From: Bacilli bacterium
GTDB lineage: Bacteria > Bacillota_I > Bacilli_A > RFN20 > CAG-449
Reading direction: 5' to 3'
Length of the DNA stretch: 29,632 bases
Assembly: GCA_051891155.1 (NCBI GenBank)
Contig: JBJFEV010000082.1
Span: 1 to 29,632, forward strand
The position numbers were made by a program, and so were the translations under genes. This document shows positions 24,948 through 29,632 of this stretch, piece after piece. The notes beneath the pieces are model-generated. The model did no database searches and was not told the DNA's origin. It saw only the letters and a program-made list of their open reading frames with translations. Each line of letters starts with the position of its first letter. Within the stretch, counting starts at the first letter, position 1.

Positions 24948-25121
24948 ATCTAGAAGGCGTCGGAATTCCTGGGTTCTCCAGGGGGGCATCTTTTCTCTAC
25001 TTCTGGATTCCGAACTTAGATGAATAATAAATTAATTTATTAGACGAACGGCCTTCAACTCCATAGAGATGAATAAGATTCCCTATTACAAAATGTAGGA
25101 AACGCATATAACCTTCTAGAC
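24948..25121 (-). ncRNA. ssrS: 6S RNA (SsrS)-like RNA, about 173 nt
   Basis: Terminal stem TCTAGAAGG/CCTTCTAGA continued by TTCCT/AGGAA; 13x13-nt central bubble (ACATTTTGTAATA / CCCTGGAGAACCC); apical stem GGGAATCTT/AAGATGCCC then TCTCTAT/GTAGAGA; own promoter upstream. Confidence 0.8.
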
Positions 25122-25127
25122 ACCTAT

Positions 25128-25156
25128 ATTTTAGCACCTATATATCAATTTATCAA
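25128..25156 (-). promoter_or_regulatory. Sigma-A promoter of the 6S-like RNA
   Basis: TTGATA-17 nt-TAAAAT with a TGn extension; predicted +1 near G25121, the first base of the terminal stem. Confidence 0.75.
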
Positions 25157-25180
25157 GATAGTAACATTGAGTGAAAATGT

Positions 25181-25208
25181 AAAAAAAATCCAAAGCATTA
25201 GCTTTGGA
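25181..25208 (-). terminator. Intrinsic terminator of the SipW operon
   Basis: TCCAAAGC-TAAT-GCTTTGGA followed by T8; the TAA stop of the 902-aa gene lies in the loop. Confidence 0.85.
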
Positions 25209-27906
25209 CATATAATATTGCACTTGAAGTTATTTTATAAAAATATGAAATATCTCCATAAATTAAGTTTTCATCTCCTAAAGCGACAAATGCTTCATTG
25301 GATGATTTACTCAAATCCACTCTTATGACAGGCTTCTTAAGTACATAATCGCATAAATAAATAGTCGCGTTACCATATTTAGCTTTTAATGCTTCATACA
25401 TTGATAAAGATGAACATGGTGATCCGCTCAATATTGAAGAATCACTTGTACAAATATCTCCTCCACATAAATAATCACCAATTCCATATTTATTAGCCCA
25501 TAATAAATGTTCACCTAAATTATAATGATCAATAAAATATCCATTATCACCATCATAATCTTTAACTACAGTGCCTAAATCCATATATTCATCGATAATT
25601 TTTATGAATTTGTTTGTATAACGATATGCATATATATCATAATATTCGGTATATGTATTATACGATTCAAATGAATTACCATTCATTCGTCTAACAATCA
25701 ATAAATCATATAAGCCTTTTCCACGAATCTGATCAAATGAGAAGGTTAAAACACCATTTTTCAATGAATAAGTCAATCCATCTAATTTTTTAAACACTTT
25801 TCCACCACTAGAAAATGCAGAAGGAACATATACTCCACCTGTTGGCGAAGTATTATACCAAGCGGAAGAATTTTCTGTATGATGAGAGGCAATTTGGAAA
25901 TTTAAACTTCTAGTATTAGAGAAGTTAGCGTTTCTATAAATATAAGTATTGTTAGTGATAACATCTCCAAGTAATGATGTATCTCCACCTTCTACTCCAC
26001 CAATATTACTTTCACTTATTGAATAAGCGTTTTCAATTTTTTGAAATGTTCTTGTGGTAGTGTAATTATCTTCATAATAGCTATTGTAATATGAAGAATA
26101 ATCTTCTCCAGTAAAATAAGAGTCATCATAGTTATCGCTATATAAATGATTATCACTATCAATTTCATATAGAATCACCATGTATTTTTTATATTTAGGA
26201 TCAGAAGTACTATTATATGACTTTGTAACATATACTTGGTTATTGTGAGATTCATCTGTAGATGATCCTAAGTTTACCCCATTAGTATTTGCACCAGTAT
26301 AATGAGCATCAGTTTGATTTCCCTTATATAGTTCTAAACCAACTTTGGAGAAATCATATTGTAAGTCCTTTTTATAAAGTGAAGGAAAATTCTCTTTATC
26401 ATTGGTAATTCTTTTTATAAAATCTTTTATTCGTGCACTTTGATCAGTATCTACACTTATACTTGAATCAACAATACTATTTGCATCAATTGACATACTA
26501 GAATTAGCTACAAACATATATATGTTTATATATTTATTTGAATAATCATAGTCTTCTTTTTTCTTAATTTCAAAAGCTTTACGATTAAAAGTATATGTAT
26601 ACGCCAAGGAAGAATCTAGTTGTAATGGATCTAATCTTACATCTAAATAATCAAAGTCAGTTTCTAAACATAATTGTCTTCCTACTGCATAATGAAGATA
26701 ACTATTTCCATTATACAAATCAATATCGCCTTCTTTAGTATAATGCTCATTAGAATAAGTAAATACGCGAGAAGCATCACGTATAATATTAGAGCCTTTC
26801 CATCCTAAAAAGAAGACACCATCTCTTCCTTTGATTTCTGCAAGAGTTTGCGAATACCCTCCGTTTGATATTGGATCAATCACAGCATCTTCACTGATAA
26901 AGAAACGAGGAAATATTCTAATTACATTGCTATCATCATTTTCGGGTTTAATTTTATTTAAATATTTTGATAAATCAGATGAAAATTCAAAACATGGTCC
27001 CATATCTTTTGGATTAGAACCTTCTTGGCGAGTAGTATAAGAACATGATATCTTATATCCACCACTTCCATCACTTACACTATTTGCTACATACCATTCA
27101 TAGTTTTTATTATCCTCAAAATAACCGGAATCTTCATAAATAGCGGCGATTGGATAATCGATCATACTATAAAACTTATTTGTGGACAAAGAATATTTAA
27201 CTTCAATTCGTAAAGGAAGGTATCTTCTTTCTTTATAACCTGTTTGAGGTGTTAATGAAAAAGAAGGAGTATTATCACTACCATATACCGTATAGCCAGA
27301 AGAATCTACTTGTACAAAAGTATCATATTCTGCCCATCCTCCATACCTATCATTGCAATAGTGTTGAATGGAAGAAGTTCTGTAATTAGCCGCGCCATTA
27401 TCATTTCCAGATACGTATTGAGAATAAGCGGTTTGTGCCGCTCTTGTTCGATTTTCATTTGGATAATCAGTTATATTACTAATAAAACTAGCATAAGTAC
27501 TGCATCCATTATATCCTTTTGCCACTCCTCCATTTTTTACTAATGGATAAGAAGGATTATTGGGATCTTTTAATGGTTCACCTAATAAATCATCTTCTTC
27601 TATTTCAAAATATCCGAATGCTTCTTCAGGTTTTGGAGAATTGTTTGGGTCAGATAAATAATCGCTATAAATATCAATATATGCCATTGAAGGAAAGAAA
27701 TATAAAACATAAGTTTCATCTTCATCACCTTCAAATGTATAATTTTCATATATTTTATTTACTTCCGCTTTAGTGGTTATATCCACATTATCTTTAGAAG
27801 TATTAGAGACAGGAAAAAACCACATAGAAAAGCCTGTACTAGTAGCTAGTACAGCAAAAGTTAATAATATAATAAGTGAATATTTTAACTTTCTTAACTT
27901 ATACAT
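25198..27906 (-). CDS. Large exported protein (902 aa), putative SipW-processed adhesin or fibre-associated subunit
   Basis: Basic N-region, hydrophobic core, then GFSMWFF. Y/S/N/D-rich beta-like body with no C-terminal TM or LPxTG anchor. AGGAG RBS overlaps the upstream TAG. Confidence 0.8.
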   Translation of the reverse strand: MYKLRKLKYSLIILLTFAVLATSTGFSMWFFPVSNTSKDNVDITTKAEVNKIYENYTFEGDEDETYVLYFFPSMAYIDIYSDYLSDPNNSPKPEEAFGYFEIEEDDLLGEPLKDPNNPSYPLVKNGGVAKGYNGCSTYASFISNITDYPNENRTRAAQTAYSQYVSGNDNGAANYRTSSIQHYCNDRYGGWAEYDTFVQVDSSGYTVYGSDNTPSFSLTPQTGYKERRYLPLRIEVKYSLSTNKFYSMIDYPIAAIYEDSGYFEDNKNYEWYVANSVSDGSGGYKISCSYTTRQEGSNPKDMGPCFEFSSDLSKYLNKIKPENDDSNVIRIFPRFFISEDAVIDPISNGGYSQTLAEIKGRDGVFFLGWKGSNIIRDASRVFTYSNEHYTKEGDIDLYNGNSYLHYAVGRQLCLETDFDYLDVRLDPLQLDSSLAYTYTFNRKAFEIKKKEDYDYSNKYINIYMFVANSSMSIDANSIVDSSISVDTDQSARIKDFIKRITNDKENFPSLYKKDLQYDFSKVGLELYKGNQTDAHYTGANTNGVNLGSSTDESHNNQVYVTKSYNSTSDPKYKKYMVILYEIDSDNHLYSDNYDDSYFTGEDYSSYYNSYYEDNYTTTRTFQKIENAYSISESNIGGVEGGDTSLLGDVITNNTYIYRNANFSNTRSLNFQIASHHTENSSAWYNTSPTGGVYVPSAFSSGGKVFKKLDGLTYSLKNGVLTFSFDQIRGKGLYDLLIVRRMNGNSFESYNTYTEYYDIYAYRYTNKFIKIIDEYMDLGTVVKDYDGDNGYFIDHYNLGEHLLWANKYGIGDYLCGGDICTSDSSILSGSPCSSLSMYEALKAKYGNATIYLCDYVLKKPVIRVDLSKSSNEAFVALGDENLIYGDISYFYKITSSAILYVQS

Positions 27907-27915
27907 ATAATTCTC

Positions 27916-28671
27916 CTAACTAACATATTCTGAATATAAAGATATTCTAATTTTCCAATTTTGATTATATGAATCTTTAACAAGTTGATTATATTTTGAA
28001 ATTGTTAATGGCTTCACATCTTGACTCACATATTTAATAACTTTGCTCAAGCGGATGATATATGAGACTTCATTTTCATCATTATTATTGATGTTTTTAT
28101 CAATATTTAATGCATCTAAGTATGATGAAGGAATAGTAGAGCTTTCATCATAATATGTATAACATCCAAATGACGAGTCATATATATACTCAAAAGTAGA
28201 TACTGTTTCCACATAATGACTTAAAGGATTTAAAGTATTTCCCCCATCGTCTGTATCTATTTCATTGCTAATTTGAAGTTTTAAGCCTAATTTTAATTTG
28301 GTCAATCCTTGACTAACTAAATAATCTAAATTTGTTTGACTAGGCTTAACAAAAGTCATAATAAATTTATCATCGCTTTCGATATACTCTTGATCATTTT
28401 CATCAAATTTCTTTGAATAGAAGGAAATACCATCAAATAAATCAGCACTTGAGTATGCCCCTTCACTTAATACAACATATAAAGGTTGTTGATCAATTCT
28501 AAAATATCCTGCACTAGCTTCATCAGTAATCACTACTTGAATTTGCTTTTCTTCTTCCTTTTTTTCTCCAGTTTCTATAAACATCCATGAACAAAAACCT
28601 GCTCCTACAAGAGCAACAACTGTTCCAAATGCGATTATAGTGGATAATAACTTACTCATTTTCTTGGTCAT
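27916..28671 (-). CDS. Exported protein (251 aa), putative SipW-processed fibre subunit
   Basis: Basic N-region, hydrophobic core, then GFCSWMF at the same residue positions as in the 902-aa protein. Overlaps the sipW 3' end; no C-terminal anchor. Confidence 0.8.
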   Translation of the reverse strand: MTKKMSKLLSTIIAFGTVVALVGAGFCSWMFIETGEKKEEEKQIQVVITDEASAGYFRIDQQPLYVVLSEGAYSSADLFDGISFYSKKFDENDQEYIESDDKFIMTFVKPSQTNLDYLVSQGLTKLKLGLKLQISNEIDTDDGGNTLNPLSHYVETVSTFEYIYDSSFGCYTYYDESSTIPSSYLDALNIDKNINNNDENEVSYIIRLSKVIKYVSQDVKPLTISKYNQLVKDSYNQNWKIRISLYSEYVS

Positions 28672-29632
28672 TGTTATTATCTCCCTCTTCCTCTACTAAA
28701 GAAGATTGGTTATCTTCAACTATATCATTATCGAGTTCTGTAGATTCTTCATTAATTTGCTCTTCGTTTTCAGCTTCTTCATTTTCTTCTAATTTAGAAT
28801 CGCTTTCTTCTTTTGCTTTTTCCTCGATTTGTTCAAGAATGTATTCAATTCTTTTATCATATGTTTTTTCAATTTTTTCTTCCGTAAAATCAAATGCAAG
28901 GAGGAACATCATAGCACTTACTAAAGCAACAATACCAATATTAGATTGTAGATAAATAAATGCTATTCCAAAACCATAGTTTTGATAACCGCTATACCTT
29001 CCAACAATATCATCTAAAGTTATCTTCATTTCAAAAGATAAAGAAGTACTATTGGCATCACCTCTTAAGGTATAACATGTAACACCTGTTTCTTCATCTT
29101 CATAGATCCTTATAACTCTATGAACATAAATTGTTCCTTTGTATTTATAAGCTACAATATCATATAATTCTATTTCATCATTGCTTGTTACTTTATCAAT
29201 TCCTATCAAACTATAAGTCTCAATTTGATCAGTTAAATTATTCTCTTTAATATAAGTATTAGAATCATTTACAGTTTCCATTGATCCAGTATGAATAGCA
29301 ATATATGTAGTATCAAAAATATATAAATTTTGATTATTTAATTTGAAAACTAAAGCAAAACCAAATGCGACAATTAAGACACCAAAGATAATAGAAGTAA
29401 ATAAATCCATAATGATTTCTACTACCTTTTTACCAGCCTTCTTTTCTAGGAAAATACTTTTAATATTTGTTTTATCTAAAGTTTCTCCTTTTTTAAGAGC
29501 TCTTTTCTCTAATGCCTTGATTTTATTATCTACATCAACTTTTAGAGTTTCATCTTCATGACCATATGAAACATGCTTTCTTTTATATATGGAATATAGG
29601 AAAAAGAGCACACCAAAAACAATAGCTAGTCC
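28652..29632 (-). CDS. sipW: Signal peptidase I, SipW/Sec11-type (S26B); 5' end beyond the right edge
   Basis: Catalytic TGSM (Ser at 29284-29282), VHRV (His at 29122-29120) and RGDAN (29062-29051), flanked by TM segments. The frame stays open to 29632 (GLAIVFGV...), so the track's GTG at 29611 is not the real start. Confidence 0.88.
   Translation of the reverse strand, partial: GLAIVFGVLFFLYSIYKRKHVSYGHEDETLKVDVDNKIKALEKRALKKGETLDKTNIKSIFLEKKAGKKVVEIIMDLFTSIIFGVLIVAFGFALVFKLNNQNLYIFDTTYIAIHTGSMETVNDSNTYIKENNLTDQIETYSLIGIDKVTSNDEIELYDIVAYKYKGTIYVHRVIRIYEDEETGVTCYTLRGDANSTSLSFEMKITLDDIVGRYSGYQNYGFGIAFIYLQSNIGIVALVSAMMFLLAFDFTEEKIEKTYDKRIEYILEQIEEKAKEESDSKLEENEEAENEEQINEESTELDNDIVEDNQSSLVEEEGDNNNDQENE

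Follow-up and report, generated by a model that had tools for sequence, protein, structure and literature searches.

The 29,632-nucleotide stretch of DNA analysed here (contig JBJFEV010000082.1 of assembly GCA_051891155.1, referred to below in its entirety as the window) carries on its minus strand part of an operon that encodes a divergent signal peptidase and four acidic, anchor-less exported proteins with a common leader. The account that we favour, and consider somewhat better than even as a whole, is that the peptidase is private to this operon and releases its four co-encoded proteins, which then contribute to a structure on the cell surface. The pairing of a SipW peptidase with cognate substrates is a known principle; the architecture of the present peptidase, the variant of the leader and both families of cargo proteins are unnamed in Pfam and NCBIfam. 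The window corresponds to the entire contig C82 of a metagenome-assembled genome (MAG) of 1.37 Mb that is 74% complete and has a G+C content of about 30%. A search of sequencing runs recovered its DNA from one run only, a pig gut metagenome that is probably the source sample, and the host is an uncultured Mollicutes-like member of the Bacilli of the pig gut.

Within the window the operon is represented by three co-oriented and tightly packed open reading frames (ORFs), after which comes the transketolase gene tkt. The first-pass annotation of the window had described these three genes, an overlap between the first two, the fusion of a stop codon to a ribosome-binding site between the second and third, and a strong terminator at the end, and all of these were recovered at their positions on the minus strand (Table 1). 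The overlap of the peptidase gene with the gene for the 251-residue protein amounts to translational coupling, the spacer between the genes for the 251- and 902-residue proteins measures 9 nucleotides, and the terminator-like hairpin (free energy -13 kcal/mol, z-score -5.0) contains the TAA stop codon of the 902-residue gene and closes the operon. It had also been suspected that more genes lay upstream, and the flank, once retrieved, bore this out. A public contig of 33.6 kb (L008) that carries the 251-residue protein agrees with the window at every position over 11,717 nucleotides (0 mismatches) and spans the 534-bp gap between the window and C150, another contig of the MAG. On this contig the full operon reads, in order, genes for a 218-residue protein, a 227-residue protein, the 346-residue peptidase, the 251-residue protein and the 902-residue protein, followed by the terminator. 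The edge of the window cuts off codons 1-20 of the peptidase, and the genes for the 218- and 227-residue proteins lie wholly outside it. The operon therefore starts beyond the window with two more leader-bearing genes, so that there are four substrates and not two, and the window portion is the 3' three-fifths of a five-gene operon. The earlier picture of two substrates was thus incomplete, as the full operon encodes three small paralogues and one large protein. A promoter-like site (TTGACA-17-TATTAT) occurs about 100 nucleotides before the 218-residue gene, inside the 336-nucleotide gap that follows a gene for a 1478-residue protein. In the 87-nucleotide gap between the 227-residue gene and the peptidase gene there is a stable hairpin (L008:8897-8948, which falls in the assembly gap between C150 and the window) with an 11-bp core, a free energy of about -20 kcal/mol, a z-score of -4.7 and a U-rich tail; by acting as a leaky terminator or by stabilising the mRNA, it may raise the dosage of the 218- and 227-residue proteins.

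Table 1. Features of the operon inside the window, listed in the direction of transcription
Feature	Positions	Strand	Remarks
Signal peptidase gene, SipW/Sec11-type	28652..29632	-	codons 21-346 and stop
Catalytic Ser137	29282-29284	-	T-G-S-M-E-T box
Catalytic His191	29120-29122	-	H-R box
Catalytic Asp212	29057-29059	-	G-D-x-N box
Overlap of peptidase gene and 251-residue gene	28652..28671	-	20 nucleotides, different frames; GAGGGAG ribosome-binding site just upstream of ATG
Gene for 251-residue exported protein ('B-type' small subunit)	27916..28671	-	
Leader motif of 251-residue protein	28579..28599	-	G25-F26-C27/S28-W29-M30-F31; predicted cut after C27
TAGGAG, stop codon of 251-residue gene fused to ribosome-binding site of 902-residue gene	27907..27918	-	7 nucleotides before ATG
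Gene for 902-residue exported protein ('Large')	25198..27906	-	
Leader motif of 902-residue protein	27814..27834	-	G25-F26-S27/M28-W29-F30-F31; predicted cut after S27
Intrinsic-terminator-like hairpin	25180..25209	-	9 bp, 4-nucleotide loop, U8

The peptidase had been described in the first-pass annotation as a Ser/His enzyme of the SipW type; the type assignment stood up. The reading frame runs off the window, and the full protein has 346 residues. In an alignment of 21 peptidase homologues Ser137, His191-Arg192 and Gly211-Asp212-x-Asn214 are invariant, and the general base is His, not Lys. A profile of the peptidase matched human SEC11C/SEC11A across the HR and GDxN boxes (IVHRV, GDNN) with an expectation value (E) of 2e-5. 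Among the NCBIfam models, TIGR02228 (archaeal-type signal peptidase I) gave 32.2 bits, under its cut-off of 51.85, and NF046067 (the Bacillus SipW equivalog) gave 28.3 bits against a cut-off of 190; a Pfam scan of the peptidase yielded no peptidase-family match. These sub-threshold scores indicate a divergent clade and not a SipW equivalog, and the protein is predicted to be a divergent signal peptidase I of the endoplasmic reticulum/archaeal type (SipW/Sec11, S26B) with a Ser-His-Asp catalytic set. It has three hydrophobic segments (residues 6-38, 89-120 and 240-271) and not the usual two; the second and third bracket the catalytic part, and the first is additional. A conserved Y-K-x-K-x-I-x-x-G-H-E-D motif comes after the first hydrophobic segment, an insertion is present downstream of the catalytic Ser, and the C-terminal tail is acidic. 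This arrangement suggests a layout with a short N-terminus outside the cell, a first transmembrane (TM) helix, a Lys-rich cytoplasmic loop, a second TM helix, an external catalytic domain, a third TM helix and an acidic cytoplasmic tail. A large protein collection holds 81 homologues, all of them unnamed and nearly all without a Pfam domain, and overall identity within the family is about 26-41%.

The leader is the feature that ties the other four proteins to one another. Each begins with a Lys/Arg-rich start, continues with about 17 hydrophobic residues and ends in V-G-x-G-F-[S/A/C]-x-W-x-F. The first-pass annotation had noted an atypical signal common to the two exported proteins of the window, and G25-F26-x-x-W29-x-F31 is indeed present in both; what it lacked were the two further substrates upstream. 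For statistics, 76 leader proteins were gathered by way of the G-F-x-x-W core, so that G, F and W are fixed by selection; among them the residue after F (position -1) is S, A, G or C in 98%, position -3 is G, G occupies -5 in 93% and F occupies +4 in 94%. The -3/-1 rule for signal peptidases places the cut after G-F-[small], and cleavage would most likely occur after the small residue behind the invariant G-F, leaving mature N-termini of the form x-W-x-F. When compared with canonical TasA/M73-type proteins of the same class using hhalign, only the leaders align (probability 82%, E 1e-5), with GFSAW opposite TYAwF of the canonical leaders. The register T-Y-A/x-F, in which the slash denotes the cut, is that of the TasA cleavage site, and the corresponding pattern small(-3)-aromatic(-2)-small(-1)/x-aromatic(+2) is present in the proteins described here. 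No NCBIfam model recognises the leader. Two other classes of exported protein were considered on account of the motif and set aside. Lipidation via Cys27 of the 251-residue protein was rejected because Phe precedes the Cys, the lipobox does not fit, and Cys is found at this position in 5% of the family. In class III type IV pilin leaders the cut falls between G and F, ahead of the hydrophobic helix, and Glu is found at +5; such a leader was ruled out because here the hydrophobic segment precedes G-F and position +5 shows no conserved Glu.

The leader and the peptidase occur together, as had been anticipated in the first-pass annotation. The pattern GF[ASCGT][ASGMTC]W within the first 90 residues is found in only 6 of the 2202 ORFs of the MAG, and the motif is unlikely to be a product of chance, as every one of the six adjoins one of two peptidase paralogues. 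The second paralogue belongs to a module at C122:376-4753 on the minus strand, which consists of a 209-residue protein (G-F-A-G-W), a 263-residue protein (G-F-A-A-W), a 337-residue peptidase with three TM segments that is 32% identical to the peptidase of the window, and a 602-residue membrane protein. In 47 related loci, whose species genomes carry the labels uncultured Mollicutes or Bacilli, Candidatus Onthovivens or UBA6380, leader-bearing genes flank the peptidase in about 43; the commonest gene order is small protein A, peptidase, small protein B and the large protein, with two variant orders. When 399 genomes sampled evenly across the class were searched, the peptidase clade was detected in 40 and the small-protein family in 27, and all 27 fall among the 40, with the matches on the same contigs, although these genomes are mutually related and the count is not a formal test. 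Furthermore, the partner of a paralogous peptidase clade is one large protein, of 840-1040 residues, whose leader ends in G-[A/G]-Y-A-[T/M]-W, so the pairing of leader and peptidase is a general rule. A literature search found no work on SipW in these lineages. Peptidase clusters linked to McrBC have been described under the name CoCoPALM (PMC11090510); no McrB-like gene was seen in the operon or among the genes just upstream.

The cargo comprises two families, that of the three small paralogues and that of the large protein. With the leaders removed, 69 of the 76 leader proteins form one BLAST-linked family, which includes the 218-, 227- and 251-residue proteins, and homologues of the 902-residue protein (790-1160 residues) occupy the same operon position in related loci. 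The predicted mature forms of the four proteins measure about 21, 23, 26 and 100 kDa and are acidic, with isoelectric points (pI) of 4.2-4.7; that of the 251-residue protein has 224 residues, 25.8 kDa and a pI of 4.4, and that of the 902-residue protein, which is rich in beta structure, has 875 residues, 99.6 kDa and a pI of 4.65. Outside the leader, the residues that are invariant in the small family are one Gly and, towards the C-terminus, a Lys-Pro pair (K220-P221 in the 251-residue protein). A profile of this family gathered 1022 representative clusters, 632 of them at E ≤ 1e-10, from 1.84 billion proteins. Scans of the five operon proteins and 55 family members with Pfam, NCBIfam, PADLOC and PHROGs returned nothing other than the sub-threshold peptidase matches, and a sequence search of the PDB with the small-family profile gave no match. 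In the ESM Atlas the small proteins met unnamed clusters only, the nearest named cluster having PF12389 in 22% of its members and scoring 0.88-0.89, below the threshold of the tool, and the 902-residue protein had no match. The claim that neither wall nor membrane anchors are present was upheld: no LPXTG motif occurs in the five operon proteins, the only hydrophobic segment of the 251- and of the 902-residue protein is the N-terminal one, and none of the exported proteins showed a second membrane segment. A sortase (PF04203) was detected in 1 of 31 relatives and not in the MAG. Penicillin-binding proteins are present in the MAG, so a cell wall probably exists. Only 9 of 14 species of the genus and 19 of the 31 relatives, nearly all of them >90% complete, have detectable transpeptidase domains of such proteins, a patchiness that fits the repeated loss of peptidoglycan in these orders (PMC10868615).

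The nearest known counterparts are operons in which a dedicated peptidase serves secreted matrix proteins. The tapA-sipW-tasA operon of Bacillus subtilis gives rise to TasA biofilm fibres (PMC9674648, PMC10151520), and operons of like logic make the TasA and BsaA polymers (PMC9674648, PMC11580942). Like tapA-sipW-tasA, the module described here encodes a dedicated signal peptidase of the endoplasmic reticulum type between its own substrates, its leaders follow the same small-aromatic-small/x-aromatic pattern, and its products are anchor-less and sortase-independent. It differs in that its peptidase, with an additional membrane segment at the N-terminus, a charged loop in the cytoplasm and an acidic tail, lies far under the SipW equivalog cut-off (28 versus 190 bits), in that its mature substrates are unrelated to TasA and TapA by Pfam, profile-profile comparison or fold search, and in that it has four substrates, including a protein of 100 kDa; moreover, the module is known from sequence, and its polymerisation is only a proposal. 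In operon composition the closest match is the sipW-bsaA-bsaB-bsaC operon of Clostridium perfringens, in which one SipW is accompanied by a pair of small matrix proteins and a single large secreted one (PMC11580942; Obana et al. 2020, cited therein). BsaA and BsaB are described as remote homologues of TasA, BsaC is assigned a von Willebrand A domain, and BsaA is reported to polymerise by donor-strand exchange and to be locked by an Asn-Lys isopeptide bond (PMC11580942). In the module proteins, by contrast, neither TasA likeness nor a von Willebrand A domain can be detected, and a role in such a lock for the invariant Lys-Pro of the small family would be an analogy only. The archaeal bundling pilus subunit AbpA has a TasA-like fold and assembles without chaperone or sortase (PMC9245690); it shares with the module a beta-rich secreted subunit and an archaeal-type signal peptidase, whereas no TasA-like fold was found for the model of the 251-residue protein with Foldseek against the PDB. 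The module also differs from the sortase-assembled pili of Gram-positive bacteria in lacking both the LPXTG motif in its five proteins and a detectable sortase in its genome.

Canonical loci with a short SipW and Peptidase_M73-like substrates occur in the same class as the module, including the same genus (L057-L068), and are built on the same logic with alignable leaders (T-Y-A-x-F versus G-F-S-x-W). In contrast to the module, these loci have short peptidases of 160-260 residues, and their substrates reach the PF12389 cut-off by way of their N-terminal part. The first-pass annotation saw no recognisable likeness of the exported proteins to TasA or camelysin, and three lines of comparison concur. 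PF12389 (Peptidase_M73) matched neither the 251- nor the 902-residue protein nor any of the 55 family members; hhalign of mature-only module proteins against canonical M73-like proteins gave a probability of 0.5%; and among the top 50 matches listed by Foldseek for the 251-residue model in the PDB there was no TasA entry. As the canonical proteins of related genomes are matched by the PF12389 model in their leader regions only, and the mature-only comparison was negative, membership in the TasA family was rejected. The module is a separate system, parallel to the canonical SipW/M73 loci, with its own peptidase clade and cargo families. One canonical locus, L066 in a genome of the same genus (G008), consists of a 160-residue SipW followed by three proteins of about 220-260 residues with the leaders T-Y-S-W-F, T-I-A-Y-F and S-L-A-W-F, so that classical TasA-type loci coexist with the module in this genus.

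On the favoured account, that of a private peptidase and its four substrates, each protein would be exported by the Sec pathway via its leader of 25-27 residues and cut by the co-encoded peptidase. The released proteins would most likely assemble outside the cell in a non-covalent fashion, as a fibre, a matrix or an adhesive complex, to which the 100-kDa protein may contribute the functional or adhesive part. Several observations weigh against this account. Cleavage and its site are read from sequence patterns. A LepB-type housekeeping peptidase was found in 25 of 31 relatives and not above cut-off in the 74%-complete MAG itself, so that the status of the peptidase as additional and dedicated is drawn from the relatives. 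Among the 40 peptidase-positive genomes, 13 have no detectable member of the small family, which implies that the peptidase clade also serves other cargo. The AlphaFold2 models of the 251- and 902-residue proteins are of moderate quality only, with predicted local distance difference test (pLDDT) values of 75.6 and 65.1, respectively; Foldseek found no match at E < 0.04 for either model in the PDB or for the small one in BFVD, and the mature proteins, as modelled, match no TasA, pilin or adhesin fold.

The first-pass annotation went further and suggested a possible filament, its shaft made of the small subunit and its tip formed by the large protein as an adhesin. In its strict form this would be a donor-strand filament in which one small protein polymerises via its freed N-terminal segment and the 902-residue protein serves as the tip adhesin. 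We regard such a filament as possible but doubtful. The 251-residue model is a mixed beta/alpha domain in which residues 23-48 are undocked in the monomer (pLDDT < 50), and this stretch includes a family-conserved, beta-like V-x-V-T segment, as might be expected of a strand donated to a neighbour; the feature is suggestive only. By analogy, the operon follows the same logic as tapA-sipW-tasA and sipW-bsaABC, whose products form donor-strand polymers (PMC9674648, PMC11580942), and with two small proteins and one large protein sipW-bsaA-bsaB-bsaC comes closest in composition (PMC11580942). The hairpin after the 227-residue gene could boost the dosage of the 218- and 227-residue proteins, as with major pilins, and the top match of the 251-residue model in the PDB is the pilus rod subunit PapA, albeit a weak one (E 0.14, probability 0.28), with nothing at E < 0.1. 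On the other hand, the fold of the 251-residue model does not significantly resemble that of TasA, AbpA or any pilin, and the mature domain is as remote from the canonical M73 proteins as the comparison above indicates. The large protein, too, has no domain resembling the small subunit by which it could join a fibre: hhalign aligned the leader alone between the small and large families (probability 93%), and at this sensitivity a pilin-like domain in the 902-residue protein was rejected. A homotrimer prediction for the mature 251-residue protein (residues 28-251) scored 0.00, a result that counts neither for nor against polymerisation. With no pilin or TasA fold match and only the leader common to large and small proteins, the step from SipW-dependent exported proteins to a small-shaft/large-tip filament is not supported, though it is not refuted either, and the interpretation offered in the first-pass annotation is as a whole partly supported. 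A more far-reaching and rather unlikely extension would see here a new surface appendage, in which a SipW-like peptidase with three TM segments frees subunits of a new fold; these would polymerise, or dock the 100-kDa protein, via their released aromatic N-terminus (x-W-x-F) and the next conserved strand, while the conserved cytoplasmic motif and the tail of the peptidase would couple assembly to the cell interior; this would constitute a third class of sortase-independent fibre, beside the TasA type and type IV pili, specific to gut Bacilli with reduced genomes.

The module is an accessory element that is patchily distributed in its genus, evolves faster than its housekeeping neighbours and is often lost. 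Of 14 other species in the genus, 7 yielded a member of the peptidase clade and 2 the large protein. Identity in another strain amounts to 85% for the 251-residue protein and 71.5% for the large one, and over 14 loci of standard order the median pairwise identities are 29% for A, 30% for B, 33% for Large and 43% for the peptidase. In two close relatives (L069 and L070) tkt is 93-94% and the other neighbours 86-93% identical, and the peptidase only 69%. There the peptidase ORF continues, by an in-frame fusion, into the initial ~60 residues of a decayed 251-residue gene (L069:318-1604 and L070:10001-11266), the remainder of that gene and the whole 902-residue gene are deleted, and tkt comes directly next; in L070 the Gly before the catalytic Ser is replaced by Asp. 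Seven of the closest peptidase homologues (representatives of 394-416 residues, one cluster with 59 members) have lengths that fit the fused form, the fusion itself having been read directly in the two fetched loci only.

Such fast evolution and patchiness would also fit antagonistic effectors, and it might be argued that the products are soluble and secreted, for example with the large protein as an enzyme, toxin or bacteriocin and the small ones as helpers or immunity-like proteins, the peptidase serving only to ensure their release. The cargo proteins have no anchors, and the second, paralogous peptidase family has one large protein as its sole partner, both of which would be in keeping with this possibility. 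However, none of the five proteins matched an enzyme, toxin, defence or phage family in the Pfam, NCBIfam, PADLOC and PHROGs scans, Foldseek against the PDB matched no enzyme fold, and a set of three paralogous, beta-rich small proteins, arranged in constant order about the peptidase, would rather be expected of structural subunits; we therefore hold soluble effectors to be improbable. The confident enzyme matches that the first-pass annotation named as contrary to its proposal were likewise absent from both kinds of search. It is likewise improbable that the leaders stay uncut and hold four signal-anchored (type II) membrane proteins in a complex with a three-TM peptidase-like protein through G-F-x-x-W-x-F as an interfacial motif. 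In favour of this, aromatic residues (F, W, Y/F) typically anchor the outer end of a membrane helix at the interface, conservation of the motif extends to either side of the putative cut, and retention would account for anchor-less proteins staying on the cell. Against it, the invariance of Ser, His and Asp in a family only ~26-41% identical argues for an active enzyme, the restriction of -1 to S/A/G/C and of -3 to G obeys the signal-peptidase rule, and the register is shared with TasA-type leaders, whose cleavage is known.

Some features of the surroundings may be recorded. The region 5' of the operon (L008:1-7193, partly in C150) is a run of unannotated membrane proteins, namely an acidic TM protein, a 237-residue multi-TM protein, a 405-residue TM protein with an LRR_5 domain and the 1478-residue multi-TM giant; these genes are not conserved beside the module in other loci. 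On the other side, within 24990-25160 of the window, a promoter-like TTGATA-17-TGnTAAAAT at 25156-25128 of the minus strand lies about 140 nucleotides upstream of the longest tkt ORF, and gene callers place the tkt start 23 codons later (655 versus 678 residues). Elsewhere in the MAG, C53:1603-4131 encodes an 88-residue protein of PqqD-like size, a 144-residue soluble S24/S26-like peptidase (G-V-S-M-K ... H-R-V ... R-G-D-N) and a gene resembling those of ATP-binding cassette (ABC) transporters; this small cluster has the look of one for peptide maturation and bears no relation to the operon.

The significance of the module lies in the organisms that carry it. The RF39/RFN20-like 'Mollicutes' are abundant in animal and human guts and uncultured, the biology of their cell surface is almost blank, and the module is among the few surface systems that can be recognised in them; none of the 1022 clusters of the small family is named. 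With one peptidase and one leader motif it offers an experimental handle, and the motif can be used now for annotating substrates of this peptidase clade in metagenomes. The surface structure that the module may build would be an accessory and fast-diversifying one, and fast evolution with gain and loss between species is expected of structures in contact with the host, with phages or with neighbouring cells. Should its products polymerise, the TasA paradigm would extend to unrelated folds.

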